Part shown: positions 12,333 to 58,610 of the stretch, piece by piece
Layout of the letters: each line of letters opens with the position of its first letter
Position numbering within the stretch: position 1 is the stretch's first letter
From: Escherichia coli
GTDB lineage: Bacteria; Pseudomonadota; Gammaproteobacteria; Enterobacterales; Enterobacteriaceae
Length of the DNA: 64,000 nt
Assembly: GCF_003334765.1 (NCBI RefSeq)
Contig: NZ_QOWT01000008.1
Strand: one strand, 5' to 3'
Notes under the pieces: generated by a model
Databases searched by the model: none
Seen by the model: only the letters and a program-made list of their open reading frames with translations
What the model was told of the DNA's origin: nothing
Program-made: the position numbers and the translations under genes

Positions 12333-12707
<375 letters not shown>

Positions 12708-13190: not shown

Positions 13191-13226
13191 AAAAGGCGAC
13201 ACATTGGCATGTCGCCTTTTTTATTG
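13191..13226. terminator. Bidirectional rho-independent terminator (acrD / ypfM)
   Basis: Stem GGCGACA/TGTCGCC with 8-nt loop, flanked by AAAAA on one side and TTTTTT on the other; lies between convergent ypfM and acrD. Confidence 0.65.
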
Positions 13227-13227
13227 C

Positions 13228-16200: not shown

Positions 16201-16341
16201 AGCGGTCACTCGCACATTCGGTGGCGCGAGATCGGGGTATTGTTCAACGGGCAATGAAAAAATCGCCAGGGTACCTGTCAGACACAACAGGATTGCCAGC
16301 ACCCAGGCAAAAATGGGGCGATCAATAAAGAAATTCGCCAT
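13228..16341 (-). CDS. acrD: RND-family aminoglycoside/multidrug efflux pump AcrD
   Basis: 1037-aa reverse ORF, 12-TM RND transporter; recognised AcrD. Confidence 0.9.
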
Positions 16342-16411
16342 TAAAAGAGGACCTCGTGTTTCTGCGTATCGTTGTAGGCTTGACTTGCTTCACTGTAGCG
16401 GCAAGGTACGA

Positions 16412-16429
16412 GCCAATCGTGGAGAAAAA
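16412..16429 (-). promoter_or_regulatory. Candidate BaeR binding box upstream of acrD
   Basis: Reverse strand reads TTTTTCTCCACGATTGGC, matching the BaeR consensus TTTTTCTCCATDATTGGC, about 70-90 bp upstream of the acrD ATG. Confidence 0.5.
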
Positions 16430-16504
16430 AAGGAGTTAATGTAAATTATCATGCCCTTTTATACTGAACCTTAAGTGCAAGTATTCTTTGGTCAGTAGGA
16501 GGCA

Positions 16505-18205: not shown

Positions 18206-18410
18206 ACGCGTCTTCTCCACAAAAAATCATTAATGTTCCAGTTCGCTGAAACGCAATTTAGTCAGTGATGGGATTATTTGATCTGCCACAGTTTATAGCG
18301 AAATAGTTACTTATTCTGGGCACATGAACATTGCCGATTCCCCTGTAAGTCGGGTAATAACAACACTCATATAAAGAATAAGGTTTTTACAACCAAAAAA
18401 GAAGGTCGTT

Positions 18411-20390: not shown

Positions 20391-20457
20391 TAGCCTGCGC
20401 AGACAAACCCGACTTCACAGCGTAAGATAATTGTTCATTTCGCGCTGTGGAGTCGGT

Positions 20458-21033
20458 ATGACGCAACAAATCACCCTCATTAAAGACAAAATTCTCTCCG
20501 ATAACTATTTCACCCTGCACAACATTACTTACGATCTCACGCGCAAAGACGGCGAAGTTATCCGCCATAAACGTGAAGTGTACGATCGCGGCAATGGTGC
20601 GACGATCCTCCTGTACAACACGAAGAAAAAGACCGTGGTTCTGATTCGTCAGTTCCGTGTCGCTACCTGGGTTAATGGCAATGAAAGCGGGCAGCTGATT
20701 GAAAGCTGCGCCGGGCTGCTGGATAACGACGAACCGGAAGTGTGTATTCGCAAAGAAGCGATTGAAGAGACGGGCTATGAAGTGGGTGAAGTGCGCAAAT
20801 TATTTGAACTGTATATGTCGCCAGGCGGTGTGACTGAGCTAATCCACTTTTTTATCGCCGAATACAGTGACAATCAGCGCGCTAACGCCGGTGGCGGTGT
20901 CGAAGATGAAGATATTGAAGTGCTCGAGCTGCCGTTCAGCCAGGCGCTGGAGATGATCAAAACCGGCGAGATACGTGACGGTAAGACGGTGTTATTGCTT
21001 AACTATTTGCAAACGTCACATTTAATGGACTGA
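20458..21033 (+). CDS. nudK: GDP-mannose pyrophosphatase NudK (Nudix hydrolase)
   Basis: 191 codons from ATG 20458 ([13 protein letters not shown]...); Nudix box region ([13 protein letters not shown]). Confidence 0.85.
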
Positions 21034-21158
21034 AAAATAACAATAATATTTCGTTGTTTATTATTGGCTCAATCCGACAAATCCGATTGAGCCGCGCTAC
21101 CTGCGCAACGAAGATACGACTTGTGCTGTTTGTTTGAACTTCTGGGGTCGTACCGTCC

Positions 21159-22202
21159 ATGCGCTATCGCATTTTCCTTCTCTTTTTTTTCGCTTTGTTG
21201 CCGACGTCTTTGGTGTGGGCGGCACCAGCGCAACGGGCGTTTTCCGACTGGCAGGTCACCTGTAATAACCAAAATTTCTGCGTGGCGCGTAATACGGGCG
21301 ATCATAATGGACTGGTGATGACCCTGAGCCGCAGCGCCGGGGCGCATACCGATGCCGTTTTACGTATTGAGCGCGGCGGATTGAAGTCGCCGGAGGCGTC
21401 AGAAGGGGAGATAGCGCCACGGCTGCTGTTAGATGGCGAGCCGTTGGCGTTAAGTGGTGACAAGTGGCGGATTTCACCATGGTTATTAGTAACCGATGAT
21501 ACGGCAACCATCACCGCGTTTTTGCAGATGATTCAGGAAGGGAAGGCAATCACCTTACGCGATGGCGATCAGACCATTTCTCTGAGTGGCTTAAAAGCAG
21601 CGTTGTTGTTTATTGATGCTCAGCAAAAGCGCGTTGGCAGTGAAACCGCGTGGATCAAGAAAGGGGACGAACCGCCGCTCAGCGTACCGCCCGCGCCTGC
21701 GCTGAAAGAGGTCGCGGTGGTTAACCCAACGCCGACGCCACTCTCACTCGAAGAACGCAACGATTTGCTGGATTATGGAAACTGGCGGATGAATGGTCTG
21801 CGCTGCTCGCTTGATCCATTGCGTCGTGAGGTGAATGTCACTGCGCTGACTGATGATAAAGCGCTGATGATGATTAGCTGTGAGGCAGGGGCCTATAACA
21901 CCATTGATTTGGCATGGATTGTGTCGCGTAAAAAGCCACTAGCTTCGCGCCCGGTTCGGTTGCGTTTGCCGTTCAACAACGGTCAGGAGACGAATGAACT
22001 GGAACTGATGAACGCAACATTTGATGAGAAATCGCGTGAACTGGTGACCTTAGCGAAAGGGCGCGGATTAAGCGATTGTGGCATTCAGGCGCGCTGGCGC
22101 TTTGACGGTCAGCGTTTTCGCCTGGTGCGTTACGCCGCAGAACCCACCTGCGATAACTGGCATGGGCCAGACGCCTGGCCCACGTTGTGGATCACCCGTT
22201 AA
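21159..22202 (+). CDS. ypfG: DUF1176 protein YpfG (predicted periplasmic)
   Basis: 347-aa ORF with N-terminal signal peptide; recognised YpfG by sequence and position. Confidence 0.8.
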   Translation: MRYRIFLLFFFALLPTSLVWAAPAQRAFSDWQVTCNNQNFCVARNTGDHNGLVMTLSRSAGAHTDAVLRIERGGLKSPEASEGEIAPRLLLDGEPLALSGDKWRISPWLLVTDDTATITAFLQMIQEGKAITLRDGDQTISLSGLKAALLFIDAQQKRVGSETAWIKKGDEPPLSVPPAPALKEVAVVNPTPTPLSLEERNDLLDYGNWRMNGLRCSLDPLRREVNVTALTDDKALMMISCEAGAYNTIDLAWIVSRKKPLASRPVRLRLPFNNGQETNELELMNATFDEKSRELVTLAKGRGLSDCGIQARWRFDGQRFRLVRYAAEPTCDNWHGPDAWPTLWITR

Positions 22203-24319: not shown

Positions 24320-25270
24320 TTATAGTTTGGCGGCAAGAAGATCTTCCAGTTTGCGTTGATCAACGGCGAACAGACGAATGCCTTCAGACAGTTTTTCTAC
24401 CGCCATCGCATCCTGATTGTGCTCCCAACGGAACTCCGCTTCGCTCATGGGAGCTGGGCGTGGGAACGTCTGAGAAGGTGGGATTAATTTACGTACCACT
24501 GGCGAAACTTTTTCCTGCAGCTCCTTCAGTAAATTCGGTGCGATAGTCAGTCGATCGCAGCCGGTTAAGGCGAGGATTTGTTCGGTGCGACGGAAGCTCG
24601 CGCCCATCACAATGGTTTCATAGTGGTGTTGCTTATAGTAGTCGTAGATATTGCGCACCGATTTAACGCCCGGATCTTCTTCCACCACATACGGGTCCAT
24701 CGGCTTGCGTGCCTGATACCAGTCATAAATACGCCCGACAAACGGCGAAATCAGAAAAACGCCTGCTTCCGCACAGGCCCGTGCCTGTGCAAAAGAAAAC
24801 AGCAGCGTCAGGTTGCAGTTAATACCTTCTTTTTCCAGCTCTTCTGCCGCGCGAATTCCTTCCCAGGTCGAAGCCAGCTTGATCAGAATGCGTGATTTCT
24901 CAACGCCTTGTTGCTGATACAAGTCCACCAGATGGCGCGCCTTCTCAATACTCTTTTCTTTATCAAAAGAGAGGCGTGCATCAACTTCTGTTGACACGCG
25001 ACCGGGTACGATTTTGAGGATTTCAGCACCGAAATTGACCGCCAGTTTGTCACACGCTGCGACCACCTGTTGTTCCTGGGTCTTGCCATTTTTTTTACCC
25101 CAGGCGATAGCATCGTCTATTAAATGCTCATATTGTGATAATCCGGCAGCTTTGAGTAACAGCGAAGGATTGGTGGTGGCATCCTGGGGATGATAATGGC
25201 GAATGGACTCAATATCGCCGCTGTCTGCCACGACAGTGGTGAACTGTTTGATGCCGTCTAACTCGTTCAT
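24320..25270 (-). CDS. talA: Transaldolase A
   Basis: 316-aa reverse ORF; recognised TalA; forms talA-tktB operon (19-nt spacer). Confidence 0.9.
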
Positions 25271-25558
25271 AGGAAATACTCCTTGAAAAGTAAAGTGTTA
25301 GATGAGTGCGTTAATTCACACTTCTGAGAAATTTCGCTAAACGCATCAAAAAAGCATAGCAGACAGGCATGGTATTGCTGGATTAAGCAGGTAACATCAG
25401 TGTTATAGGATTATTACCAAAACATTATATTAATGGTGAGAGTTTGGACTTGCTCAAAGTCTGTAGACTCCGGCAGGGTAATAATGTGCGCCACGTTGTG
25501 GGCAGGGGCTGTTGCCCACACACTTTATTTGTGAACGTTACGTGAAAGGAACAACCAA

Positions 25559-27838
25559 ATGGATGACCAGTTAAAACAAAGTGCACTTGATTTCCATGAA
25601 TTTCCAGTTCCAGGGAAAATCCAGGTTTCTCCAACCAAGCCTCTGGCAACACAGCGCGATCTGGCGCTGGCCTACTCACCAGGCGTTGCCGCACCTTGTC
25701 TTGAAATCGAAAAAGACCCGTTAAAAGCCTACAAATATACCGCCCGCGGTAACCTGGTGGCGGTGATCTCTAACGGTACGGCGGTGCTGGGGTTAGGCAA
25801 CATTGGCGCGCTGGCAGGCAAACCGGTGATGGAAGGCAAGGGCGTTCTGTTTAAGAAATTCGCCGGGATTGATGTATTTGACATTGAAGTTGACGAACTC
25901 GACCCGGACAAATTTATTGAAGTTGTCGCCGCGCTCGAACCAACCTTCGGCGGCATCAACCTCGAAGACATTAAAGCGCCAGAATGTTTCTATATTGAAC
26001 AGAAACTGCGCGAGCGGATGAATATTCCGGTATTCCACGACGATCAGCACGGCACGGCAATTATCAGCACTGCCGCCATCCTCAACGGCTTGCGCGTGGT
26101 GGAGAAAAACATCTCCGACGTGCGGATGGTGGTTTCCGGCGCGGGTGCCGCAGCAATCGCCTGTATGAACCTGCTGGTAGCGCTGGGTCTGCAAAAACAT
26201 AACATCGTGGTTTGCGATTCAAAAGGCGTTATCTATCAGGGCCGTGAGCCAAACATGGCGGAAACCAAAGCCGCATATGCGGTGGTGGATGACGGCAAAC
26301 GTACCCTCGATGATGTGATTGAAGGCGCGGATATTTTCCTGGGCTGTTCCGGCCCGAAAGTGCTGACCCAGGAAATGGTGAAGAAAATGGCTCGTGCGCC
26401 AATGATCCTGGCGCTGGCGAACCCGGAACCGGAAATTCTGCCGCCGCTGGCGAAAGAAGTGCGTCCGGATGCCATCATTTGCACCGGTCGTTCTGACTAT
26501 CCGAACCAGGTGAACAACGTCCTGTGCTTCCCGTTCATCTTCCGTGGCGCGCTGGACGTTGGCGCAACCGCCATCAACGAAGAGATGAAACTGGCGGCGG
26601 TACGTGCGATTGCAGAACTCGCCCATGCGGAACAGAGCGAAGTGGTGGCTTCAGCGTATGGCGATCAGGATCTGAGCTTTGGTCCGGAATACATCATTCC
26701 AAAACCGTTTGATCCGCGCTTGATCGTTAAGATCGCTCCTGCGGTCGCTAAAGCCGCGATGGAGTCGGGCGTGGCGACTCGTCCGATTGCTGATTTCGAC
26801 GTCTACATCGACAAGCTGACTGAGTTCGTTTACAAAACCAACCTGTTTATGAAGCCGATTTTCTCCCAGGCTCGCAAAGCGCCGAAGCGCGTTGTTCTGC
26901 CGGAAGGGGAAGAGGCGCGCGTTCTGCATGCCACTCAGGAACTGGTAACGCTGGGACTGGCGAAACCGATCCTTATCGGTCGTCCGAACGTGATCGAAAT
27001 GCGCATTCAGAAACTGGGCTTGCAGATCAAAGCGGGCGTTGATTTTGAGATCGTCAATAACGAATCCGATCCGCGCTTTAAAGAGTACTGGACCGAATAC
27101 TTCCAGATCATGAAGCGTCGCGGCGTCACTCAGGAACAGGCGCAGCGGGCGCTGATCAGTAACCCGACAGTGATCGGCGCGATCATGGTTCAGCGTGGGG
27201 AAGCCGATGCAATGATTTGCGGTACGGTGGGTGATTATCATGAACATTTTAGCGTGGTGAAAAATGTCTTTGGTTATCGCGATGGCGTTCACACCGCAGG
27301 TGCCATGAACGCGCTGCTGCTGCCGAGTGGTAACACCTTTATTGCCGATACATATGTTAATGATGAACCGGATGCAGAAGAGCTGGCGGAGATCACCTTG
27401 ATGGCGGCAGAAACTGTCCGTCGTTTTGGTATTGAGCCGCGCGTTGCTTTGTTGTCGCACTCCAACTTTGGTTCTTCTGACTGCCCGTCGTCGAGCAAAA
27501 TGCGTCAGGCGCTGGAACTGGTCAGGGAACGTGCACCAGAACTGATGATTGATGGTGAAATGCACGGCGATGCAGCGCTGGTGGAAGCGATTCGCAACGA
27601 CCGTATGCCGGACAGCTCTTTGAAAGGTTCCGCCAATATTCTGGTGATGCCGAACATGGAAGCTGCCCGCATTAGTTACAACTTACTGCGTGTTTCCAGC
27701 TCGGAAGGTGTGACTGTCGGCCCGGTGCTGATGGGTGTGGCGAAACCGGTTCACGTGTTAACGCCGATCGCATCGGTGCGTCGTATCGTCAACATGGTGG
27801 CGCTGGCCGTGGTAGAAGCGCAAACCCAACCGCTGTAA
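25559..27838 (+). CDS. maeB: NADP-dependent malic enzyme (malic enzyme fused to PTA-like domain)
   Basis: 759-aa ORF; N-terminal malic enzyme domain plus C-terminal phosphotransacetylase-like domain; recognised MaeB. Confidence 0.9.
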
Positions 27839-28129: not shown

Positions 28130-28465
28130 ATGGATAAAGAACGCATCATTCAGGAATTTGTGCCCGGCAAACAGGTCACACTGGCGCATCTCATCGCGCA
28201 TCCCGGTGAGGAACTGGCGAAGAAAATCGGCGTTCCGGATGCGGGCGCAATTGGCATTATGACGCTAACTCCCGGCGAAACGGCGATGATCGCCGGTGAT
28301 TTAGCGCTGAAAGCCGCTGATGTGCATATCGGTTTTCTCGACCGATTCAGCGGTGCATTGGTGATTTATGGCTCGGTGGGCGCAGTAGAAGAAGCGTTAT
28401 CACAAACCGTCAGCGGTTTAGGTCGCTTATTAAATTATACGCTTTGTGAAATGACCAAAAGTTAA
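28130..28465 (+). CDS. eutS: Ethanolamine utilization microcompartment shell protein EutS
   Basis: 111 codons from ATG 28130 ([21 protein letters not shown]...); BMC-domain shell protein; first gene of eut operon. Confidence 0.85.
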
Positions 28466-28477
28466 TACGAGGCATTC

Positions 28478-28957
28478 ATGAAACGAATTGCGTTTGTGGG
28501 TAGCGTCGGGGCAGGAAAAACAACGTTATTTAATGCGTTGCAGGGGAATTATACCCTCGCCAGAAAAACACAGGCCGTGGAATTTAATGATAAGGGCGAT
28601 ATTGATACGCCGGGTGAATATTTTAACCATCCCCGCTGGTATCACGCCTTAATTACCACGCTACAGGATGTAGACATGCTGATCTATGTCCATGGCGCAA
28701 ATGACCCGGAAAGTCGGTTGCCTGCCGGGTTGCTGGATATTGGCGTCAGCAAACGGCAAATCGCCGTCATCAGTAAAACGGACATGCCAGATGCTGACGT
28801 CGCCGCAACGCGAAAGTTATTGCTTGAGACGGGCTTCGAAGAGCCGATTTTCGAGCTAAACAGCCACGACCCGCAAAGCGTGCAGCAACTGGTGGATTAT
28901 CTGGCATCTCTCACCAAACAGGAGGAAGCAGGTGAAAAAACTCATCACAGCGAATGA
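28478..28957 (+). CDS. eutP: Ethanolamine utilization protein EutP (P-loop GTPase-like)
   Basis: 159-aa ORF with Walker A GSVGAGKTT. Confidence 0.85.
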   Translation: MKRIAFVGSVGAGKTTLFNALQGNYTLARKTQAVEFNDKGDIDTPGEYFNHPRWYHALITTLQDVDMLIYVHGANDPESRLPAGLLDIGVSKRQIAVISKTDMPDADVAATRKLLLETGFEEPIFELNSHDPQSVQQLVDYLASLTKQEEAGEKTHHSE

Positions 28958-29633
28958 TATTCGTGAAGCACACGCGCGCGGCGAACAGGCAATGTCCGTG
29001 GTTCTGCGCGCCAGCATTATTACCCCGGAAGCCCGTGAAGTGGCGGATCTACTGGGTTTTACCATCACCGAATGTGATGAATCGATCCCGGTAACGGCGT
29101 CCGTGCCCGCCAGCGTGCCAGCCGACAAAACCGAAAGCCAGCGCATCCGCGAAACCATCATTGCCCAGCTGCCGGAAGGCCAGTTTACCGAAAGCCTGGT
29201 CGCACAGCTGATGGAAAAAGTGATGAAGGAAAAACAGTCGCTGGAGCAGGGCGCAATGCAGCCGAGCTTCAAATCGGTGACCGGCAAAGGCGGCATCAAA
29301 GTGATTGATGGCAGTAGCGTCAAGTTTGGTCGTTTCGACGGCGCAGAGCCGCATTGCGTGGGCTTGACTGATCTTGTGACCGGAGACGACGGCAGCAGCA
29401 TGGCCGCCGGTTTTATGCAGTGGGAGAACGCATTCTTCCCGTGGACCCTGAACTACGACGAAATCGACATGGTGCTGGAAGGGGAGCTGCATGTTCGCCA
29501 CGAAGGCCAAACCATGATCGCCAAAGCAGGCGACGTGATGTTTATCCCGAAAGGCTCCAGCATCGAATTTGGTACGACATCCAGCGTGAAATTCCTGTAT
29601 GTCGCCTGGCCGGCTAACTGGCAATCCCTATGA
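28932..29633 (+). CDS. eutQ: Ethanolamine utilization protein EutQ (cupin fold)
   Basis: 233-aa ORF starting at GTG 28932 (GGAGG RBS), overlapping the eutP 3' end by 26 nt. Confidence 0.85.
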   Translation: MKKLITANDIREAHARGEQAMSVVLRASIITPEAREVADLLGFTITECDESIPVTASVPASVPADKTESQRIRETIIAQLPEGQFTESLVAQLMEKVMKEKQSLEQGAMQPSFKSVTGKGGIKVIDGSSVKFGRFDGAEPHCVGLTDLVTGDDGSSMAAGFMQWENAFFPWTLNYDEIDMVLEGELHVRHEGQTMIAKAGDVMFIPKGSSIEFGTTSSVKFLYVAWPANWQSL

Positions 29634-30433
29634 AAGATTTCATCACCGAAGCATGGCTAAGAGCGAACCATACGCTCAGCGAAGGCGCAGAGATCCATCT
29701 CCCTGCGGACAGTCGCCTGACGCCCTCTGCCCGGGAGTTGCTGGAAAGCCGCCATCTGCGCATCAAGTTTATTGACGAGCAGGGCCGCCTGTTTGTTGAC
29801 GATGAACAGCAGCAGCCGCAGCCCGTTCATGGGCTGACCAGTAGCGATGAACATCCGCAGGCGTGCTGCGAACTGTGTCGCCAGCCGGTGGCAAAAAAGC
29901 CGGATACGCTGACTCACCTGTCGGCGGAAAAAATGGTCGCCAAAAGCGATCCGCGTCTGGGTTTTCGCGCGGTTCTCGACAGCACCATTGCGCTGGCAGT
30001 GTGGCTGCAAATTGAACTGGCGGAACCGTGGCAGCCGTGGCTGGCGGATATCCGTTCGCGTCTTGGCAACATTATGCGCGCCGATGCGCTGGGGGAACCG
30101 CTGGGCTGCCAGGCGATTGTCGGGCTTTCTGACGAAGATCTGCATCGGCTTTCTCATCAGCCGCTGCGCTATCTCGACCACGATCATCTGGTGCCGGAAG
30201 CCAGCCACGGGCGCGATGCTGCGTTGCTCAATCTGCTACGCACCAAAGTGCGGGAAACCGAAACCGTAGCGGCGCAGGTCTTTATCACCCGCAGCTTTGA
30301 AGTATTACGCCCGGACATTTTGCAGGCGCTGAACCGCCTTTCGAGCACGGTCTACGTGATGATGATCCTGAGCGTAACGAAGCAGCCGCTAACGGTGAAG
30401 CAGATCCAACAACGACTGGGGGAAACGCAATGA
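29630..30433 (+). CDS. eutT: Corrinoid (cobalamin) adenosyltransferase EutT
   Basis: 267-aa ORF; ATG overlaps eutQ stop (ATGA); recognised EutT. Confidence 0.85.
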
Positions 30434-31446
30434 TTATTGAACGTTGTCGTGAACTGGCGTTGCGAGCGCCCGCCAGAGTGGTTTTTCCGGATGCGTTAGA
30501 CCAACGTGTGCTGAAAGCCGCGCAATATTTACATCAACAAGGTCTGGCAACGCCCATTCTGGTCGCCAATCCGTTTGAACTTCGTCAGTTTGCGCTCAGT
30601 CACGGCGTGGCGATGGACGGGCTACAGGTGATTGATCCGCATGGCAACCTCGCAATGCGGGAAGAATTTGCTCATCGCTGGCTGGCCCGCGCGGGCGAAA
30701 AAACGCCGCCGGATGCGCTGGAAAAACTTACCGACCCTCTGATGTTCGCCGCAGCAATGGTCAGCGCCGGTAAAGCGGATGTCTGTATCGCGGGCAACCT
30801 CTCTTCCACGGCAAATGTGCTGCGTGCCGGATTACGCATTATCGGCTTGCAGCCAGGCTGTAAAACGCTCTCTTCCATTTTCCTGATGTTGCCACAGTAC
30901 AGCGGCCCGGCGTTGGGCTTTGCCGATTGCAGCGTGGTGCCACAGCCGACGGCGGCGCAGCTGGCGGATATCGCGCTTGCCAGTGCCGAAACCTGGCGCG
31001 CCATCACCGGAGAAGAGCCGCGCGTGGCGATGCTGTCGTTTTCCAGCAATGGTAGCGCCCGTCACCCCTGTGTTGCTAACGTCCAGCAGGCGACAGAAAT
31101 CGTCCGTGAGCGCGCACCAAAGCTGGTGGTGGATGGCGAGTTACAGTTTGACGCCGCCTTCGTGCCGGAAGTGGCGGCGCAAAAAGCGCCTGCCAGCCCG
31201 CTACAGGGCAAGGCCAATGTGATGGTTTTTCCGTCGCTGGAAGCCGGAAATATTGGTTACAAAATCGCACAACGACTCGGCGGATATCGTGCCGTCGGGC
31301 CACTGATACAAGGACTTGCCGCGCCGATGCACGATCTCTCTCGTGGTTGTAGCGTGCAGGAAATTATCGAGCTGGCGCTGGTGGCAGCTGTGCCGCGTCA
31401 GACAGAAGTGAACCGCGAAAGCAGTTTACAAACACTGGTTGAATGA
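30430..31446 (+). CDS. eutD: Phosphotransacetylase EutD
   Basis: 338-aa PTA-family ORF; ATG overlaps eutT stop (ATGA). Confidence 0.9.
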
Positions 31447-31484
31447 ACGGTCCCGTTCTGGACCCTGATAAAGAGGAAAGCACA

Positions 31485-31778
31485 ATGGAAGCATTAGGAA
31501 TGATCGAAACCCGGGGCCTGGTTGCACTGATTGAGGCTTCTGACGCGATGGTGAAAGCTGCGCGCGTCAAGCTGGTTGGTGTTAAGCAGATTGGCGGCGG
31601 CCTGTGTACTGCCATGGTTCGTGGTGATGTTGCAGCCTGTAAAGCCGCGACCGATGCAGGTGCCGCAGCGGCACAGCGTATCGGCGAGCTGGTATCTGTA
31701 CACGTTATCCCGCGTCCGCACGGCGACCTGGAAGAAGTCTTCCCGATCGGCCTGAAAGGCGATAGCAGCAACCTGTAA
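31485..31778 (+). CDS. eutM: Microcompartment major shell protein EutM (BMC-H)
   Basis: 97 codons from ATG 31485 ([28 protein letters not shown]...); canonical BMC hexamer domain. Confidence 0.9.
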
Positions 31779-31884
31779 TCACCCTGTGTGACGTCGATTC
31801 GGGCGTCACGCTCTCTCCTTTTTCATTTTACCTTCTGCGGAGGGTAGGGGGAGCTTTTACCTGAAATACGCCACGGAGGCGGGT

Positions 31885-32172
31885 ATGAAACTGGCAGTCG
31901 TCACTGGACAAATTGTTTGTACCGTACGCCATCACGGACTGGCGCATGACAAATTGCTGATGGTGGAAATGATTGATCCACAAGGTAATCCTGACGGGCA
32001 ATGCGCCGTCGCCATCGACAATATTGGCGCGGGAACCGGGGAGTGGGTGTTACTGGTGAGTGGCAGTTCCGCCCGCCAGGCGCATAAAAGCGAAACGTCA
32101 CCGGTCGATCTGTGCGTGATTGGCATTGTCGATGAGGTGGTGTCTGGCGGTCAGGTAATTTTCCACAAATAA
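31885..32172 (+). CDS. eutN: Microcompartment vertex protein EutN (BMC-V)
   Basis: 95-aa ORF (MKLAVVTGQIVCTVRHHGL...), EutN/CcmL family; GGAGG RBS. Confidence 0.9.
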   Translation: MKLAVVTGQIVCTVRHHGLAHDKLLMVEMIDPQGNPDGQCAVAIDNIGAGTGEWVLLVSGSSARQAHKSETSPVDLCVIGIVDEVVSGGQVIFHK

Positions 32173-32183
32173 GGCAGAACATC

Positions 32184-33587
32184 ATGAATCAACAGGATAT
32201 TGAACAGGTGGTGAAAGCGGTACTGCTGAAAATGCAAAGCAGTGACACGCCGTCCGCCGCCGTTCATGAGATGGGCGTTTTCGCGTCCCTGGATGACGCC
32301 GTTGCGGCAGCCAAAGTCGCCCAGCAAGGGTTAAAAAGCGTGGCAATGCGCCAGTTAGCCATTGCTGCCATTCGTGAAGCAGGCGAAAAACACGCCAGAG
32401 ATTTAGCGGAACTTGCCGTCAGTGAAACCGGCATGGGGCGCGTTGAAGATAAATTTGCAAAAAACGTCGCTCAGGCGCGCGGCACACCAGGCGTTGAGTG
32501 CCTCTCTCCGCAAGTGCTGACTGGCGACAACGGCCTGACCCTAATTGAAAACGCACCCTGGGGCGTGGTGGCTTCGGTGACGCCTTCCACTAACCCGGCG
32601 GCAACCGTAATTAACAACGCCATCAGCCTGATTGCCGCGGGCAACAGCGTCATTTTTGCCCCGCATCCGGCGGCGAAAAAAGTCTCCCAGCGGGCGATTA
32701 CGCTGCTCAACCAGGCGATTGTTGCCGCAGGTGGGCCGGAAAACTTACTGGTTACTGTGGCAAATCCGGATATCGAAACCGCGCAACGCTTGTTCAAGTT
32801 TCCGGGTATCGGCCTGCTGGTGGTAACCGGCGGCGAAGCGGTAGTAGAAGCGGCGCGTAAACACACCAATAAACGTCTGATTGCCGCAGGCGCTGGCAAC
32901 CCGCCGGTAGTGGTGGATGAAACCGCCGACCTCGCCCGTGCCGCTCAGTCCATCGTCAAAGGCGCTTCTTTCGATAACAACATCATTTGTGCCGACGAAA
33001 AGGTACTGATTGTTGTTGATAGCGTAGCCGATGAACTGATGCGTCTGATGGAAGGCCAGCACGCGGTGAAACTGACCGCAGAACAGGCGCAGCAGCTGCA
33101 ACCGGTGTTGCTGAAAAATATCGACGAGCGCGGAAAAGGCACCGTCAGCCGTGACTGGGTTGGTCGCGACGCAGGCAAAATCGCGGCGGCAATCGGCCTT
33201 AAAGTTCCGCAAGAAACGCGCCTGCTGTTTGTGGAAACCACCGCAGAACATCCGTTTGCCGTGACTGAACTGATGATGCCGGTGTTGCCCGTCGTGCGCG
33301 TCGCCAACGTGGCGGATGCCATTGCGCTAGCGGTGAAACTGGAAGGCGGTTGCCACCACACGGCGGCAATGCACTCGCGCAACATCGAAAACATGAACCA
33401 GATGGCGAATGCTATTGATACCAGCATTTTCGTTAAGAACGGACCGTGCATTGCCGGGCTGGGGCTGGGCGGGGAAGGCTGGACCACCATGACCATCACC
33501 ACGCCAACCGGTGAAGGGGTAACCAGCGCGCGTACGTTTGTCCGTCTGCGTCGCTGTGTATTAGTCGATGCGTTTCGCATTGTTTAA
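32184..33587 (+). CDS. eutE: CoA-acylating acetaldehyde dehydrogenase EutE
   Basis: 467-aa aldehyde dehydrogenase-family ORF with N-terminal encapsulation-peptide-like region. Confidence 0.9.
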   Translation: MNQQDIEQVVKAVLLKMQSSDTPSAAVHEMGVFASLDDAVAAAKVAQQGLKSVAMRQLAIAAIREAGEKHARDLAELAVSETGMGRVEDKFAKNVAQARGTPGVECLSPQVLTGDNGLTLIENAPWGVVASVTPSTNPAATVINNAISLIAAGNSVIFAPHPAAKKVSQRAITLLNQAIVAAGGPENLLVTVANPDIETAQRLFKFPGIGLLVVTGGEAVVEAARKHTNKRLIAAGAGNPPVVVDETADLARAAQSIVKGASFDNNIICADEKVLIVVDSVADELMRLMEGQHAVKLTAEQAQQLQPVLLKNIDERGKGTVSRDWVGRDAGKIAAAIGLKVPQETRLLFVETTAEHPFAVTELMMPVLPVVRVANVADAIALAVKLEGGCHHTAAMHSRNIENMNQMANAIDTSIFVKNGPCIAGLGLGGEGWTTMTITTPTGEGVTSARTFVRLRRCVLVDAFRIV

Positions 33588-33597
33588 GGAGTAACAG

Positions 33598-34434
33598 ATG
33601 GCGCACGACGAACAATGGCTCACCCCACGTCTGCAAACGGCGGCAACGCTGTGTAACCAGACGCCCGCCGCGACGGAATCTCCGCTGTGGCTGGGGGTGG
33701 ATCTGGGCACCTGCGATGTGGTGTCGATGGTTGTCGACCGCGACGGTCAGCCAGTGGCGGTATGCCTCGACTGGGCCGATGTGGTTCGCGACGGCATCGT
33801 CTGGGATTTCTTCGGCGCTGTCACCATTGTTCGTCGCCATCTCGACACGCTCGAGCAGCAATTCGGTCGTCGTTTTAGCCATGCGGCGACTTCATTTCCT
33901 CCAGGTACGGACCCGCGTATTTCCATCAACGTGCTGGAATCTGCCGGACTGGAAGTGAGCCATGTGCTGGATGAGCCAACCGCAGTTGCGGATCTGCTGC
34001 AACTGGACAACGCCGGTGTAGTGGATATCGGCGGCGGCACTACCGGCATTGCCATCGTGAAAAAGGGCAAGGTGACGTACTCGGCGGATGAAGCCACCGG
34101 CGGACATCACATCTCTCTGACTCTCGCCGGAAATCGCCGTATTTCGCTGGAAGAGGCGGAGCAGTACAAGCGCGGTCACGGTGAAGAGATTTGGCCTGCG
34201 GTGAAACCGGTGTACGAAAAAATGGCGGACATTGTCGCCCGGCATATTGAAGGGCAGGGCATTACTGATTTATGGCTGGCGGGCGGCTCTTGTATGCAAC
34301 CGGGCGTGGCGGAACTGTTTCGCAAACAATTCCCGGCGTTACAGGTGCATTTACCGCAGCACAGTTTGTTTATGACCCCGCTGGCGATCGCCAGTAGTGG
34401 GCGAGAGAAAGCGGAGGGGCTATATGCAAAATGA
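33598..34434 (+). CDS. eutJ: Ethanolamine utilization chaperone-like protein EutJ (actin/Hsp70 fold)
   Basis: 278-aa ORF with DxG-type ATPase motifs (VDLGT, DIGGGTTG). Confidence 0.85.
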   Translation: MAHDEQWLTPRLQTAATLCNQTPAATESPLWLGVDLGTCDVVSMVVDRDGQPVAVCLDWADVVRDGIVWDFFGAVTIVRRHLDTLEQQFGRRFSHAATSFPPGTDPRISINVLESAGLEVSHVLDEPTAVADLLQLDNAGVVDIGGGTTGIAIVKKGKVTYSADEATGGHHISLTLAGNRRISLEEAEQYKRGHGEEIWPAVKPVYEKMADIVARHIEGQGITDLWLAGGSCMQPGVAELFRKQFPALQVHLPQHSLFMTPLAIASSGREKAEGLYAK

Positions 34435-35611
34435 ATTGCAGACCGCGCTCTTTCAGGCGTTCGATACCCTGAATCTGCAACGGGTAAAAACATTTAGCGT
34501 TCCACCGGTGACGCTTTGCGGTCCGGGCTCGGTGAGCAGTTGCGGACAGCAAGCGCAAACGCGTGGGCTGAAACATCTGTTCGTGATGGCAGACAGCTTT
34601 TTGCATCAGGCAGGGATGACCGCCGGGCTGACGCGTAGCCTGACCGTTAAAGGTATCGCCATGACGCTCTGGCCATGTCCGGTGGGCGAACCGTGCATTA
34701 CCGACGTGTGTGCAGCCGTGGCGCAGTTGCGTGAGTCAGGCTGTGATGGGGTGATCGCGTTTGGCGGCGGCTCGGTGCTGGATGCGGCGAAAGCCGTGAC
34801 GTTGCTGGTGACGAACCCGGATAGCACGCTGGCAGAGATGTCAGAAACCAGCGTTCTGCAACCGCGCTTGCCGCTGATTGCCATTCCAACTACCGCCGGA
34901 ACCGGCTCTGAAACCACCAATGTAACGGTGATTATCGACGCGGTGAGCGGGCGCAAGCAGGTGTTAGCCCATGCCTCGCTGATGCCGGATGTGGCGATCC
35001 TCGACGCCGCATTGACCGAAGGTGTGCCGTCGCATGTCACGGCGATGACCGGCATTGATGCGTTAACCCATGCCATTGAAGCATACAGCGCCCTGAACGC
35101 TACACCGTTTACCGACAGTCTGGCGATTGGTGCCATTGCGATGATTGGCAAATCGCTGCCGAAAGCGGTGGGCTACGGTCACGACCTTGCCGCGCGCGAG
35201 AGCATGTTGCTGGCTTCATGTATGGCGGGAATGGCGTTTTCCAGTGCGGGTCTTGGGTTGTGCCACGCGATGGCGCATCAGCCGGGCGCGGCGCTGCATA
35301 TTCCGCACGGTCTCGCGAACGCCATGTTGCTGCCAACGGTGATGGAATTTAACCGGATGGTTTGTCGTGAACGCTTTAGTCAGATTGGTCGGGCACTGCG
35401 AACTAAAAAATCCGACGATCGTGACGCTATTAACGCGGTAAGTGAGCTGATTGCGGAAGTTGGGATTGGTAAACGACTGGGCGATGTTGGTGCGACATCT
35501 GCGCATTACGGCGCATGGGCGCAGGCCGCGCTGGAAGATATTTGTCTGCGCAGTAACCCGCGTACCGCCAGCCTGGAGCAGATTGTCGGCCTGTACGCAG
35601 CGGCGCAATAA
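34424..35611 (+). CDS. eutG: Iron-containing alcohol dehydrogenase EutG
   Basis: 395 codons from ATG 34424 (MQNELQTALFQAF...), overlapping the eutJ 3' end by 11 nt; Fe-ADH family. Confidence 0.85.
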   Translation: MQNELQTALFQAFDTLNLQRVKTFSVPPVTLCGPGSVSSCGQQAQTRGLKHLFVMADSFLHQAGMTAGLTRSLTVKGIAMTLWPCPVGEPCITDVCAAVAQLRESGCDGVIAFGGGSVLDAAKAVTLLVTNPDSTLAEMSETSVLQPRLPLIAIPTTAGTGSETTNVTVIIDAVSGRKQVLAHASLMPDVAILDAALTEGVPSHVTAMTGIDALTHAIEAYSALNATPFTDSLAIGAIAMIGKSLPKAVGYGHDLAARESMLLASCMAGMAFSSAGLGLCHAMAHQPGAALHIPHGLANAMLLPTVMEFNRMVCRERFSQIGRALRTKKSDDRDAINAVSELIAEVGIGKRLGDVGATSAHYGAWAQAALEDICLRSNPRTASLEQIVGLYAAAQ

Positions 35612-35612
35612 A

Positions 35613-35797
<185 letters not shown>

Positions 35798-35827
35798 ATA
35801 AATAACAACTAACAGGGAGTAAAGGCG

Positions 35828-37054
35828 ATGGGAATTAACGAAATCATCATGTACATCATGATGTTCTTTATGCTGATAGCTGCCGTAGACAGGATCCTGT
35901 CGCAGTTCGGCGGTTCTGCTCGTTTCCTCGGTAAGTTCGGTAAAAGTATCGAAGGATCAGGCGGTCAGTTCGAAGAAGGCTTTATGGCAATGGGCGCACT
36001 GGGCCTGGCGATGGTCGGTATGACCGCGCTGGCACCGGTACTGGCTCACGTTCTCGGGCCGGTAATTATTCCGGTTTACGAAATGCTCGGCGCTAACCCA
36101 TCGATGTTCGCCGGAACACTGCTGGCGTGCGATATGGGCGGCTTCTTCCTCGCCAAAGAGCTGGCGGGCGGCGACGTAGCCGCGTGGCTATACTCTGGGT
36201 TAATTCTCGGGTCGATGATGGGGCCAACGATTGTGTTTTCCATTCCGGTGGCGCTCGGCATTATCGAACCTTCTGACCGTCGTTATCTGGCGCTCGGCGT
36301 GCTGGCGGGCATTGTGACCATTCCGATTGGTTGTATCGCTGGTGGTCTGGTTGCTATGTACTCCGGTGTGCAGATCAACGGCCAGCCGGTGGAATTCACT
36401 TTCGCCCTGATCCTGATGAACATGATCCCGGTGATCATTGTTGCGATTCTGGTGGCGCTGGGGCTGAAATTCATCCCGGAAAAAATGATCAACGGCTTCC
36501 AGATCTTCGCCAAATTCCTCGTTGCATTGATCACCCTCGGTCTTGCCGCTGCGGTAGTGAAATTCCTGCTTGGCTGGGAACTGATCCCCGGTCTGGATCC
36601 TATCTTTATGGCCCCTGGCGATAAACCCGGTGAGGTGATGCGCGCCATTGAAGTTATCGGTTCTATCTCCTGCGTTCTGTTAGGGGCGTATCCGATGGTG
36701 CTGCTGCTGACTCGCTGGTTTGAAAAACCGCTGATGAGCGTCGGTAAAGTACTGAATATGAACAACATCGCGGCAGCCGGCATGGTGGCAACGCTTGCCA
36801 ACAACATCCCGATGTTCGGCATGATGAAGCAGATGGATACCCGCGGCAAAGTCATCAACTGCGCCTTCGCCGTTTCCGCTGCTTTCGCCCTGGGCGACCA
36901 CTTAGGCTTCGCCGCTGCCAACATGAACGCCATGATCTTCCCGATGATTGTCGGCAAGTTGATCGGCGGCGTAACGGCGATTGGCGTGGCGATGATGCTG
37001 GTGCCAAAAGAAGACGCGACCGCGACTAAAACCGAAGCGGAGGCACAATCGTGA
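35828..37054 (+). CDS. eutH: Ethanolamine permease EutH
   Basis: 408-aa polytopic membrane ORF; recognised EutH. Confidence 0.9.
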   Translation: MGINEIIMYIMMFFMLIAAVDRILSQFGGSARFLGKFGKSIEGSGGQFEEGFMAMGALGLAMVGMTALAPVLAHVLGPVIIPVYEMLGANPSMFAGTLLACDMGGFFLAKELAGGDVAAWLYSGLILGSMMGPTIVFSIPVALGIIEPSDRRYLALGVLAGIVTIPIGCIAGGLVAMYSGVQINGQPVEFTFALILMNMIPVIIVAILVALGLKFIPEKMINGFQIFAKFLVALITLGLAAAVVKFLLGWELIPGLDPIFMAPGDKPGEVMRAIEVIGSISCVLLGAYPMVLLLTRWFEKPLMSVGKVLNMNNIAAAGMVATLANNIPMFGMMKQMDTRGKVINCAFAVSAAFALGDHLGFAAANMNAMIFPMIVGKLIGGVTAIGVAMMLVPKEDATATKTEAEAQS

Positions 37055-38454
37055 ACACTCGCCAGCTATTGAGCGTCGGTATCGATATCGGCACCACCAC
37101 CACCCAGGTGATTTTCTCCCGGCTGGAGCTGGTTAACCGTGCGGCGGTGTCGCAGGTGCCGCGCTACGAATTCATTAAACGCGAAATTAGCTGGCAAAGT
37201 CCGGTGTTCTTTACCCCTGTCGATAAACAGGGCGGTTTAAAAGAAGCGGAACTGAAAACCTTAATACTCGAGCAATATCATGCTGCGGGTATTGAGCCGG
37301 AAAGCGTTGATTCTGGTGCCATCATCATCACCGGTGAAAGCGCGAAAACCCGCAATGCTCGCCCGGCGGTGATGGCGCTCTCTCAGTCGCTGGGCGATTT
37401 TGTCGTTGCCAGCGCCGGGCCGCACCTCGAATCCGTGATCGCCGGTCACGGAGCCGGGGCACAAACCCTTTCTGAACAACGGCTGTGTCGGGTACTGAAT
37501 ATCGACATCGGCGGTGGCACCGCGAACTACGCCCTGTTCGATGCCGGAAAAATCAGCGGCACTGCCTGCCTCAACGTCGGTGGTCGCCTGCTGGAAACCG
37601 ACAGCCACGGGCGCGTGGTTTACGCTCATAAACCGGGGCAGATGATTGTGGATGAGTGCTTCGGTGCAGGCACCGACGCCCGTTCGCTGACCGGCGCGCA
37701 GCTGGTGCAGGTGACCCGGCGGATGGCAGAACTGATTGTCGAAGTGATTGACGGAACGCTCTCACCGCTCGCGCAGGCATTGATGCAAACCGGTTTGCTG
37801 CCCGCAGGTGTTACGCCCGAAATCATTACGCTTTCTGGCGGCGTGGGCGAATGTTATCGCCACCAGCCCGCCGACCCGTTCTGTTTTGCCGATATTGGCC
37901 CGCTGCTGGCAACTGCGCTGCATGACCATCCGCGCCTGCGTGAGATGAACGTACAGTTTCCGGCGCAAACCGTGCGCGCCACGGTGATTGGCGCGGGCGC
38001 GCATGCCCTTTCGCTCTCTGGCAGCACAATCTGGCTTGAGGGCGTACAACTGCCGCTGCGCAATTTGCCGGTGGCGATCCCGATTGATGAAACGGATCTG
38101 GTGGGGGCCTGGCAACAGGCGCTGATTCAGCTGGATCTTGATCCCAAAACTGACGCGTACGTGCTGGCGCTTCCCGCCTCGCTGCCTGTGCGTTACGCCG
38201 CGGTACTGACGGTCATCAACGCGTTGGTCGATTTCGTCGCGCGTTTTCCGAATCCGCATCCCCTGCTGGTGGTGGCCGGGCAGGACTTTGGTAAAGCTCT
38301 GGGCATGTTGTTGCGCCCACAGCTACAACAACTCCCGTTGGCAGTCATTGACGAAGTGATTGTCCGCGCGGGGGACTATATCGACATTGGTACGCCTCTT
38401 TTTGGCGGATCGGTTGTGCCGGTGACGGTGAAATCACTCGCATTTCCTTCCTGA
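37051..38454 (+). CDS. eutA: Ethanolamine ammonia-lyase reactivase EutA
   Basis: 467-aa ORF starting at GTG 37051 overlapping eutH stop (GTGA); recognised EutA. Confidence 0.9.
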   Translation: MNTRQLLSVGIDIGTTTTQVIFSRLELVNRAAVSQVPRYEFIKREISWQSPVFFTPVDKQGGLKEAELKTLILEQYHAAGIEPESVDSGAIIITGESAKTRNARPAVMALSQSLGDFVVASAGPHLESVIAGHGAGAQTLSEQRLCRVLNIDIGGGTANYALFDAGKISGTACLNVGGRLLETDSHGRVVYAHKPGQMIVDECFGAGTDARSLTGAQLVQVTRRMAELIVEVIDGTLSPLAQALMQTGLLPAGVTPEIITLSGGVGECYRHQPADPFCFADIGPLLATALHDHPRLREMNVQFPAQTVRATVIGAGAHALSLSGSTIWLEGVQLPLRNLPVAIPIDETDLVGAWQQALIQLDLDPKTDAYVLALPASLPVRYAAVLTVINALVDFVARFPNPHPLLVVAGQDFGKALGMLLRPQLQQLPLAVIDEVIVRAGDYIDIGTPLFGGSVVPVTVKSLAFPS

Positions 38455-38465
38455 GGGAACGACTT

Positions 38466-39827
38466 ATGAAACTAAAGACCACATTGTTCGGCAATGTATA
38501 TCAGTTTAAGGATGTAAAAGAGGTGCTGGCTAAAGCCAACGAACTGCGTTCGGGGGATGTGCTGGCGGGCGTCGCAGCGGCAAGCTCACAGGAGCGCGTG
38601 GCGGCAAAGCAGGTGTTGTCGGAAATGACCGTAGCGGACATCCGCAATAATCCGGTGATTGCCTATGAAGATGACTGCGTGACGCGGCTGATTCAGGACG
38701 ATGTTAACGAAACGGCCTACAACCAGATTAAAAACTGGAGCATCAGCGAACTGCGTGAGTATGTGCTGAGCGATGAAACCAGCGTGGACGACATTGCCTT
38801 TACCCGCAAAGGGCTGACCTCGGAAGTGGTCGCGGCGGTAGCGAAGATTTGCTCCAACGCGGACCTGATCTACGGCGCGAAGAAAATGCCGGTAATCAAA
38901 AAGGCCAATACCACCATCGGTATTCCGGGCACCTTTAGCGCCCGTTTGCAGCCAAATGACACCCGTGACGACGTGCAAAGTATCGCCGCGCAAATCTACG
39001 AAGGGCTTTCCTTCGGGGTGGGCGATGCGGTGATCGGCGTTAACCCGGTGACTGACGACGTGGAAAACTTAAGCCGCGTGTTGGATACCATCTATGGCGT
39101 GATCGACAAATTCAACATCCCAACTCAGGGCTGTGTACTGGCGCACGTCACCACCCAGATCGAAGCGATCCGTCGTGGCGCACCGGGCGGGCTGATTTTC
39201 CAGAGTATCTGTGGCAGCGAAAAAGGGCTGAAAGAGTTTGGCGTGGAGCTGGCGATGCTCGACGAAGCGCGCGCAGTGGGCGCGGAGTTCAACCGTATCG
39301 CCGGGGAAAACTGCCTCTACTTCGAAACCGGACAAGGCTCTGCGCTATCCGCTGGCGCTAACTTCGGCGCAGACCAGGTAACGATGGAAGCACGTAACTA
39401 CGGGCTGGCGCGTCATTACGATCCGTTTATCGTCAACACCGTGGTCGGCTTTATTGGGCCGGAGTATCTCTACAACGACCGCCAGATTATCCGTGCTGGC
39501 TTAGAAGATCACTTTATGGGCAAGCTGAGCGGCATCTCTATGGGCTGTGACTGCTGTTATACCAACCACGCTGACGCTGACCAGAACCTCAACGAAAACC
39601 TGATGATCCTGCTCGCCACCGCAGGCTGCAACTACATCATGGGGATGCCGCTGGGTGATGACATCATGCTCAACTACCAGACCACCGCATTCCACGATAC
39701 CGCCACTGTGCGTCAGTTACTCAACCTGCGCCCGTCACCGGAGTTTGAACGCTGGCTGGAAAGCATGGGCATTATGGCAAACGGTCGCCTGACCAAACGG
39801 GCGGGCGATCCGTCACTGTTCTTCTGA
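38466..39827 (+). CDS. eutB: Ethanolamine ammonia-lyase large subunit EutB
   Basis: 453-aa ORF; recognised EutB; begins 11 nt after the eutA stop. Confidence 0.9.
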   Translation: MKLKTTLFGNVYQFKDVKEVLAKANELRSGDVLAGVAAASSQERVAAKQVLSEMTVADIRNNPVIAYEDDCVTRLIQDDVNETAYNQIKNWSISELREYVLSDETSVDDIAFTRKGLTSEVVAAVAKICSNADLIYGAKKMPVIKKANTTIGIPGTFSARLQPNDTRDDVQSIAAQIYEGLSFGVGDAVIGVNPVTDDVENLSRVLDTIYGVIDKFNIPTQGCVLAHVTTQIEAIRRGAPGGLIFQSICGSEKGLKEFGVELAMLDEARAVGAEFNRIAGENCLYFETGQGSALSAGANFGADQVTMEARNYGLARHYDPFIVNTVVGFIGPEYLYNDRQIIRAGLEDHFMGKLSGISMGCDCCYTNHADADQNLNENLMILLATAGCNYIMGMPLGDDIMLNYQTTAFHDTATVRQLLNLRPSPEFERWLESMGIMANGRLTKRAGDPSLFF

Positions 39828-39847
39828 TGACGCGGAGATAACATATC

Positions 39848-40735
39848 ATGGATCAAAAACAGATTGAAGAAATTGTACGCAGCGTGATGGCGTCAATGGG
39901 ACAAGCGGCCCCCGCGCCGTCAGAAGCAAAGTGCGCCACCACCAACTGTGCGGCACCGGTGACCTCGGAAAGCTGTGCGCTGGATTTAGGTTCCGCTGAA
40001 GCAAAAGCGTGGATTGGTGTTGAAAATCCGCATCGCGCAGACGTATTAACAGAACTGCGCCGCAGCACCGTGGCCCGCGTTTGTACCGGTCGTGCCGGTC
40101 CGCGTCCACGTACGCAGGCGCTGCTGCGTTTCCTGGCCGATCACTCTCGTTCGAAAGATACCGTACTGAAAGAAGTGCCGGAAGAGTGGGTGAAAGCGCA
40201 GGGCTTGCTGGAAGTACGCTCTGAAATTAGCGACAAAAATCTCTACCTGACTCGCCCGGATATGGGCCGCCGCCTGTGTGCAGAAGCTGTTGAAGCGCTG
40301 AAAGCGCAGTGTGTTGCCAATCCGGACGTACAGGTCGTTATTTCTGATGGCCTGTCAACTGATGCGATCACCGTGAACTACGAAGAGATCCTGCCACCGC
40401 TGATGGCGGGCCTGAAACAGGCCGGGCTGAAAGTCGGTACACCATTCTTTGTTCGTTATGGTCGCGTGAAGATTGAAGATCAGATCGGTGAGATCCTCGG
40501 CGCGAAAGTAGTGATCCTGCTGGTGGGCGAACGTCCGGGGTTGGGTCAGTCAGAAAGCCTCTCCTGCTACGCCGTTTACTCGCCGCGTATGGCGACCACC
40601 GTTGAGGCCGATCGCACCTGTATCTCTAACATTCACCAGGGCGGCACGCCGCCGGTTGAAGCCGCAGCCGTCATTGTGGATTTGGCGAAACGTATGCTGG
40701 AGCAGAAAGCATCCGGCATCAACATGACCCGATAA
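39848..40735 (+). CDS. eutC: Ethanolamine ammonia-lyase small subunit EutC
   Basis: 295-aa ORF; recognised EutC. Confidence 0.9.
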
Positions 40736-40744
40736 GGAGGCATC

Positions 40745-41404
40745 ATGCCAGCTTTAGATTTGATTCGACCGTCTGTCACCGCTATGCGGGTGATTGCCTC
40801 CGTTAACGCCGATTTTGCGCGTGAACTGAAATTGCCGCCGCATATTCGTAGCCTCGGTCTGATTTCTGCCGACTCCGATGACGTCACCTACATTGCCGCT
40901 GATGAAGCGACCAAGCAGGCGATGGTGGAAGTGGTGTATGGCCGCTCGCTATATGCGGGCGCTGCACACGGCCCGTCACCGACTGCCGGTGAAGTGCTGA
41001 TTATGCTTGGTGGGCCAAACCCGGCGGAAGTGCGTGCAGGTCTGGATGCGATGATTGCGCATATTGAAAATGGCGCAGCTTTCCAGTGGGCTAATGACGC
41101 GCAAGATACGGCATTCCTGGCACATGTAGTTTCGCGTACCGGTTCTTATCTCTCATCAACCGCCGGGATCACGCTTGGCGATCCGATGGCGTATCTGGTG
41201 GCACCGCCGCTGGAAGCGACCTATGGCATTGATGCAGCCCTGAAGTCTGCCGACGTACAGCTGGCGACCTATGTCCCGCCACCGTCTGAAACCAACTACT
41301 CGGCAGCATTTTTAACCGGTAGCCAGGCAGCGTGTAAAGCAGCCTGTAACGCCTTTACCGATGCAGTGCTGGAAATCGCGCGTAATCCAATCCAGCGTGC
41401 GTAA
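40745..41404 (+). CDS. eutL: Microcompartment shell protein EutL (tandem BMC domain, BMC-T)
   Basis: 219-aa ORF; recognised EutL. Confidence 0.9.
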
Positions 41405-41416
41405 CGGAGGTTGCCG

Positions 41417-41917
41417 ATGATCAATGCACTGGGATTGCTGGAAGTGGACGGCATGGTCGCCGCGATAGATGCAGCGGATGCCATGCTCAAAGCAGCTAAC
41501 GTTCGTCTGCTCAGTCACGAAGTGCTTGACCCTGGTCGCTTAACGCTGGTGGTGGAAGGCGATCTGGCGGCGTGTCGTGCGGCGCTGGACGCAGGTTGTG
41601 CTGCCGCGATGCGTACCGGGCGTGTCATCAGCCGCAAGGAGATCGGTCGGCCAGACGATGACACCCAGTGGCTGGTTACTGGCTTTAACCGCCAGCCGAA
41701 GCAACCCGTAAGGGAACCCGACGCGCCAGTTATCGTCGCGGAATCTGCTGACGAGTTGTTGGCGCTGTTAACATCAGTACGTCAGGGAATGACGGCAGGA
41801 GAAGTGGCTGCCCACTTTGGCTGGCCGCTGGAAAAAGCCAGAAATGCGCTCGAACAGCTCTTTTCTGCCGGGACGTTACGTAAACGCAGTAGTCGTTATC
41901 GTCTCAAGCCCCATTAA
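41417..41917 (+). CDS. eutK: Microcompartment shell protein EutK (BMC domain plus C-terminal helix-turn-helix-like tail)
   Basis: 166 codons from ATG 41417 (MINALGLLEVDGMVAAIDAADAMLKAANV...). Confidence 0.85.
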   Translation: MINALGLLEVDGMVAAIDAADAMLKAANVRLLSHEVLDPGRLTLVVEGDLAACRAALDAGCAAAMRTGRVISRKEIGRPDDDTQWLVTGFNRQPKQPVREPDAPVIVAESADELLALLTSVRQGMTAGEVAAHFGWPLEKARNALEQLFSAGTLRKRSSRYRLKPH

Positions 41918-41962
41918 CCTGTCGGAGGTGCCGGGTGTCCTACAACACCCGGCATTAACATC

Positions 41963-43015
41963 ATGAAAAAGACCCGTACAGCCAATTTGCACCATCTTTA
42001 TCATGAACCCTTACCCGAAAACCTGAAGCTCACGCCGAAGGTCGAAGTGGATAATGTTCATCAACGACAGACAACGGATGTCTATGAACATGCTTTAACG
42101 ATTACCGCCTGGCAGCAGATTTACGATCAGCTGCATCCGGGCAAGTTTCATGGTGAATTTACGGAAATTCTACTCGATGATATTCAGGTTTTTCGTGAAT
42201 ACACCGGTCTGGCGCTGCGTCAGTCGTGCCTGGTCTGGCCGAACTCGTTCTGGTTTGGCATTCCGGCGACGCGCGGTGAGCAGGGATTTATCGGTTCGCA
42301 ATGTCTGGGAAGCGCGGAAATCGCCACCCGCCCTGGTGGCACTGAATTTGAACTGAGCACGCCGGATGATTACACGATCCTGGGCGTGGTGCTTTCTGAA
42401 GATGTCATCACCCGGCAGGCTAACTTTTTGCATAACCCGGATCGGGTATTACATATGTTGCGTAACCAGTCGGCGCTGGAAGTGAAAGAGCAGCATAAAG
42501 CCGCGCTGTGGGGCTTTGTCCAACAGGCGCTGGCGACGTTTTGCGAGAATCCGGAAAATCTCCATCAGCCTGCAGTGCGAAAAGTGCTGGGGGATAATTT
42601 GCTAATGGCGATGGGGGCCATGCTGGAAGAAGCGCAACCAATGGTGACGGCGGAAAGCATCAGTCATCAGAGTTACCGTCGATTGCTTTCCCGCGCCCGT
42701 GAATATGTGCTGGAAAACATGTCCGAACCGGTGACGGTGCTGGATTTGTGTAATCAACTGCATGTCAGCCGCCGCACGCTACAAAACGCGTTTCACGCTA
42801 TTTTAGGCATTGGCCCGAACGCGTGGCTGAAACGCATTCGCCTGAACGCCGTACGCCGCGAACTGATAAGTCCGTGGTCGCAAAGTATGACGGTAAAAGA
42901 CGCCGCCATGCAGTGGGGATTCTGGCATCTGGGGCAATTTGCCACGGATTACCAGCAGCTGTTTTCCGAGAAGCCGTCACTGACGCTGCATCAGCGGATG
43001 CGGGAGTGGGGGTGA
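41963..43015 (+). CDS. eutR: AraC-family transcriptional activator EutR
   Basis: 350-aa ORF with C-terminal AraC-type HTH; last gene of eut operon. Confidence 0.9.

Positions 43016-58490: not shown

Positions 58491-58610
<120 letters not shown>

Follow-up and report, generated by a model that had tools for sequence, protein, structure and literature searches.

The eutA-eutB junction of an Escherichia coli chromosome closely related to K-12 as a probable empty attachment site of CPZ-55/IntZ-type islands

Several features of the cryptic prophage CPZ-55 of E. coli K-12 are already published, namely its position, an 8-bp repeat, its prevalence, its loss in several K-12 lines and the presence of another prophage at the same site. 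An 8-bp duplication, 5'-TCAGGAAG-3', was described at the eutA stop codon by Ramisetty and Sudhakari in 2019, in a study that also gives a prevalence of about 8% (PMC6379469). Excision of the prophage occurs at a low but measurable rate (PMC3105296), and a precise excision was recorded in strain ER2796 (PMC4444293). CPZ-55 has also been lost from W3110 and EMG2 (PMC9997739), with a second source reporting its absence from W3110 (PMC9431181). A different, novel prophage was found at the eutA-eutB site of the uropathogenic strain U71 (PMC6652756), and the eut operon is functionally disrupted in BW25113 compared with strains carrying an intact operon (PMC7617246). The closest described systems are the lambda/P4-type reactions between attP and attB at the 3' ends of host genes, such as e14 at icd or P4-like elements at tRNA genes. 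CPZ-55 is comparable to these elements in its tyrosine integrase, its short identical core and the putative arm-type repeats flanking its attP, and in entering the 3' end of a gene whose coding sequence stays intact. It differs from them in the length of the block of identity, only 8 bp, and in entering an operon at the end of a protein-coding gene, where integration would be polar on the downstream genes rather than neutral.

We analyzed a 64-kb stretch of an E. coli chromosome (hereafter the window), in which the complete 17-gene eut operon eutS P Q T D M N E J G H A B C L K R is encoded on the plus strand at about 28130-43015. All 17 genes are open and colinear, as in the enterobacterial 17-gene operon, and their order and sizes agree with the annotation of strain H3. 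The same genes in the same order form the uninterrupted operon of most E. coli, including Nissle 1917 and uropathogenic strains, and of Salmonella enterica. In these operons, as in the window, eutA and eutB are adjacent and separated by a short spacer containing the eutB ribosome-binding site, and no difference was found between them and the window. The eutA gene (37051..38454, plus strand, GTG start) encodes the ethanolamine ammonia-lyase reactivating factor of 467 aa (NCBIfam NF007991, 1066.5 bits against a cut-off of 799) and terminates with a TGA codon at 38452-38454. It is followed by eutB (38466..39827, plus strand, ATG start), encoding the 453-aa large subunit of ethanolamine ammonia-lyase (NF011649, 664.7 bits against a cut-off of 554). 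EutH, EutC, EutL and EutR were likewise confirmed with NCBIfam models. The original prediction placed the end of eutA at 38454, the start of eutB at 38466 and an 11-nt spacer between them, in agreement with the open reading frame list, the NCBIfam matches and the sequence.

The spacer, GGGAACGACTT (38455..38465, plus strand), is all that lies between the two genes, where neither the open reading frame list nor the sequence revealed any integrase or phage gene. A Shine-Dalgarno motif for eutB, GAGG (38453-38456), precedes the ATG by 9 nt; its GA belongs to the stop codon of eutA and its GG to the spacer. The 32-nt sequence of the junction occurs once in the 64-kb window, and no match is expected from shuffled sequences. 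Scans for tRNA genes and Rfam families gave no match at the junction. Elsewhere in the window, REP-type elements of the Rfam family naRNA4 (RF02564) were detected at 35666-35747 (plus strand) and 10879-10955, with scores of 71.8 and 92.7 bits; that at 35666-35747 sits in the 216-nt eutG-eutH spacer, within the eut operon. A match to the small RNA ES036 (CssrF) was found on the minus strand at 58534-58576 (40.9 bits, gathering score 37.6).

The presence of CPZ-55 between eutA and eutB in K-12 MG1655, stated in the original prediction, was seen both in an MG1655-labelled record and in BW25113. The order in K-12 is eutA, then yffS, R, Q, P, O, N, M and L together with intZ on the opposite strand, then eutB. 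In MG1655, the prophage spans intZ/b2442 to yffS/b2450. K-12 contains 6,790 extra bp at this position, corresponding to an element of 6,782 bp and one additional copy of the core. A base-by-base alignment showed that the left arm of K-12 matches the window through 38454 and that the right arm matches it from 38447, which defines a common core, CTTCCTGA, at 38447..38454 on the plus strand. This core covers the final 8 nt of eutA with its TGA, and is the published duplication TCAGGAAG read on the opposite strand (PMC6379469).

The window reads exactly as the left arm of the K-12 attL, one core and the right arm of the K-12 attR. Its site is thus that of K-12 minus CPZ-55 and one core copy; the site itself is no different, and the surrounding chromosome differs by 8 SNPs and one indel in 41 kb. 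The junction is also identical to that of a CPZ-55-free genome labelled W3110 over the 90 nt compared. Alignment of the junction with MG1655, other E. coli genomes and the CPZ-55 attachment site supported the presence of an empty site. The original prediction had equated this site with the 11-nt spacer; an unoccupied site does exist here, but its core adjoins the spacer and lies outside it. The core stops where the spacer begins; the spacer represents the flanking arm left on the eutB side and is found unchanged beside eutB at the attR of every occupied genome examined. From these alignments, the full empty attB would extend approximately from 38434 to 38465 (plus strand), with the 3' end of eutA as left arm, the core, and the spacer as right arm. 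By eye, the left arm of attB resembles the left arm of attP in islands of 13 kb and 10 kb found at the same site (TCACTC.....T.CTTCCTGA).

Integration leaves two copies of the core and thereby spares both the stop codon of eutA and the ribosome-binding site of eutB: the K-12 attL keeps the stop codon, while the attR keeps the Shine-Dalgarno motif, which straddles the joint. At the K-12 attL, the joint places TGA directly before ATG, and a 41-aa open reading frame annotated in RefSeq (WP_001270762.1) begins there (13230-13355 of the retrieved K-12 locus). The other two element types described below have ATA in place of this ATG, and the open reading frame is therefore not conserved.

Three genomes occupied by elements other than CPZ-55 were examined (strains BMH-17-0027, YJ6 and Z1323CEC0016). 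The insert of BMH-17-0027 is 12,992 bp long and carries a tape-measure fragment, a small-terminase-like gene and an HNH endonuclease gene. YJ6 and Z1323CEC0016 have in common a 10,303-bp island with IS1, a gadC-like antiporter gene, a glutamate racemase gene and a decarboxylase pseudogene. The intZ region of both inserts shares roughly 86-90% DNA identity with that of CPZ-55. In all three strains, the insertion occurred at the identical nucleotide, with identical joints and an identical core. Their attL reads TTTCCTTCCTGA joined to AT(G/A)CGGTA, and their attR reads TTCTTCCTGA joined to GGGAACGACTTATG. Across CPZ-55 and these two other element types, CTTCCTGA is the only block common to attL and attR, and a tyrosine integrase gene adjoins attR in each. 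The use of one site by three diverged element types indicates site specificity. The U71 prophage and the 13.0-kb and 10.3-kb islands use the attB seen in the window, with the same joints, and have a related integrase; the window carries none of them. The cargo of the 10.3-kb island (11082-21376 in both retrieved loci) is metabolic rather than phage-like, and its glutamate racemase gene is a second copy. Among the matches listed, this island may be the commonest occupant outside K-12. In the occupied strain Z1323CEC0016, the annotation shows a frameshift in eutR (locus positions 24893-25869), which may reflect decay of the interrupted operon in this single case.

Taken together, these comparisons support the view, to which we assign a probability of roughly 0.9, that the last 8 nt of eutA and the 11-nt spacer constitute the empty attB of CPZ-55/IntZ-type islands in an uninterrupted eut operon. 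In the empty state, eutA and eutB would be co-transcribed, with the predicted eutB ribosome-binding site GAGG overlapping the eutA stop codon. In MG1655, the integrase would have recombined a phage-borne attP with attB inside the 8-bp CTTCCTGA. This attP would contain the same 8-bp core between GTATCCGG repeats with a putative arm-type role, and strand exchange would take place somewhere within the core. As a result, eutA and eutB of MG1655 are separated by 6.8 kb of prophage genes running in the opposite orientation.

To assess the frequency of the empty site, complete E. coli genomes were searched with a 1,015-bp sequence that has the junction at its middle, and a contiguous match was scored as an intact junction. 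Of the 5,424 genomes having the locus, 4,965 (91.5%) gave such a match, which makes this configuration the norm in E. coli and the window an ordinary, typical member. Full CPZ-55 was present in 213 genomes, nearly all of them K-12 laboratory derivatives among the matches listed, and appears to be essentially confined to K-12. About 200 further genomes had only an intZ-like gene (80-90% DNA identity), associated with other cargo. Among non-K-12 genomes, about 4% were occupied by diverse islands.

The window most likely represents the common, never-occupied form of the site. An alternative is that the site once held CPZ-55 or a relative that was lost by precise IntZ-mediated excision, in which case the lineage would be cured rather than naive. 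Excision is detectable (PMC3105296), precise loss of CPZ-55 recurs in the K-12 lines W3110 and EMG2 (PMC9997739) and ER2796 (PMC4444293), and the window flanks are 99.98% identical to K-12, placing the two lineages very close at this locus. As excision leaves a clean attB without any scar, the sequence reads the same for a naive and a restored site. We nevertheless consider prior occupancy unlikely, given the 91.5% of complete genomes with an intact junction and the 213 genomes with full CPZ-55, among whose listed matches nearly all are K-12 laboratory strains. With the prophage nearly confined to K-12, a gain in the K-12 lineage is more parsimonious.

A related reading, which we regard as quite improbable, is that the attB works as a reversible switch of the type known as active lysogeny, where the inserted island would turn ethanolamine catabolism off and its precise excision would turn it on. 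If so, selection in the gut would favour the excised state, and the window would show such a polymorphic switch in its 'on' position instead of a merely naive site. Hints in this direction are the repeated precise loss of CPZ-55 in K-12 lines, the occupancy of about 4% of non-K-12 genomes, an O16:H48 mouse-gut isolate combining a K-12 eutA allele with an intact junction, and the one occupied strain with a decayed eutR.

The preferred reading, an attB used by IntZ-type integrases, was further examined from the side of the element. IntZ is a tyrosine integrase (phrog_1, E=1e-67; NF007246), and some RefSeq records annotate an arm-type DNA-binding domain on it. A search of 50,697 phage records gave a best identity to IntZ of at most 44%, so that none of them offered a free phage from which this attP could be read; it was instead rebuilt from attR and attL. 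When the nine CPZ-55 proteins were compared with PHROGs, only the integrase and the small-terminase-like YffO gave matches, and the other seven had no PHROGs function. The octamer GTATCCGG/CCGGATAC flanks the reconstructed attP core at offsets -157 or -167, -118 or -128, +58 and +70. Each of the three element types has 3-4 copies, whose offsets are conserved. The four copies of CPZ-55 are all found no more than 160 bp from the element ends (13230-13377 and 19853-20011 of the retrieved K-12 locus). For comparison, GTATCCGG occurs once in the 64 kb of the window and is absent within 300 bp of attB. These octamers are probably arm-type integrase binding sites; we found no mention of them in the literature cited here. 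Inspection by eye for a palindromic core-binding pair around CTTCCTGA gave only a weak TTCC/GGAA symmetry, on which we make no claim.

The use of an identical site by diverged elements, together with measurable and precise excision, indicates a classical site-specific reaction between attP and attB, and the conserved arm repeats argue for the same mechanism over a 'transposon-like' insertion. The latter wording (PMC6379469) implies that CPZ-55 arrived with an 8-bp target-site duplication and that 38447-38454 is a mere past target. The repeat is indeed short (8 bp) and is termed a target-site duplication in that study. This scenario is very hard to reconcile, however, with three diverged element types inserted at one nucleotide with the same 8 bp, a tyrosine integrase gene beside attR in each, conserved putative arm-type repeats at the element ends and precise excision. 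In addition, CPZ-55 has no annotated transposase, the family matches among its nine proteins being an integrase and a small terminase subunit.

The lack of CPZ-55 between eutA and eutB distinguishes the window from MG1655-type K-12, which is what the original prediction had concluded. W3110, EMG2 and ER2796 are K-12 strains without CPZ-55, so the absence of the prophage alone is insufficient to exclude a K-12 origin. A W3110-labelled genome indeed combines the K-12 EutA allele with an intact junction. The flanking sequence was compared with K-12 over 41 kb of the 64-kb window. Eight SNPs and one 1-nt indel separate the window from the W3110-labelled genome, at positions 25747, 27838 (indel), 28834, 28849, 38005, 45851, 47179, 52066 and 53250. 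The indel at 27838 lies just after maeB, and 38005 is the single eutA SNP relative to K-12. BW25113 shows the same differences from the window over the region shared, and the flanking sequence thus sets the window apart from K-12, the W3110 substrain included. Several isolates outside K-12, H3 and BS74R-D among them, match the window at 100% identity (26 kb tested), and the EutA, EutP, YfeZ and YfeX protein alleles of H3 differ from those of K-12. Descent from a CPZ-55-free K-12 of the W3110, EMG2 or ER2796 type can be dismissed with near certainty: such strains exist, their junction is identical over the 90 nt compared and local identity reaches 99.98%, but the same nine positions differ from both K-12 genomes, which excludes a K-12 origin, the four H3 alleles are unlike those of K-12, and the window is fully identical to several non-K-12 isolates. 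As judged from this 64-kb window, the source is very closely related to K-12 at the locus (about 99.98% identity) but is not K-12 itself.

To what was published, this analysis adds where precisely the core sits with respect to the stop codon of eutA and the ribosome-binding site of eutB, the conserved GTATCCGG repeats as candidate arm sites, and an updated frequency of the intact junction, 91.5% of 5,424 complete genomes. Its significance outside strain typing is small. The intact junction marks the source as unlike MG1655 and predicts, from sequence, a functional and co-transcribed eut operon. The locus could serve as a quick discriminator of K-12 pedigrees, being occupied in MG1655 and BW25113 versus empty in W3110, EMG2 and ER2796; it is unsuited to telling K-12 from non-K-12. 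Among the genomes with an intact junction, strain PG20180170 (NZ_CP043187.1), of serotype O16:H48 and from mouse gut, has a K-12-like serotype and the K-12 EutA allele, and could be a K-12 strain cured of CPZ-55.
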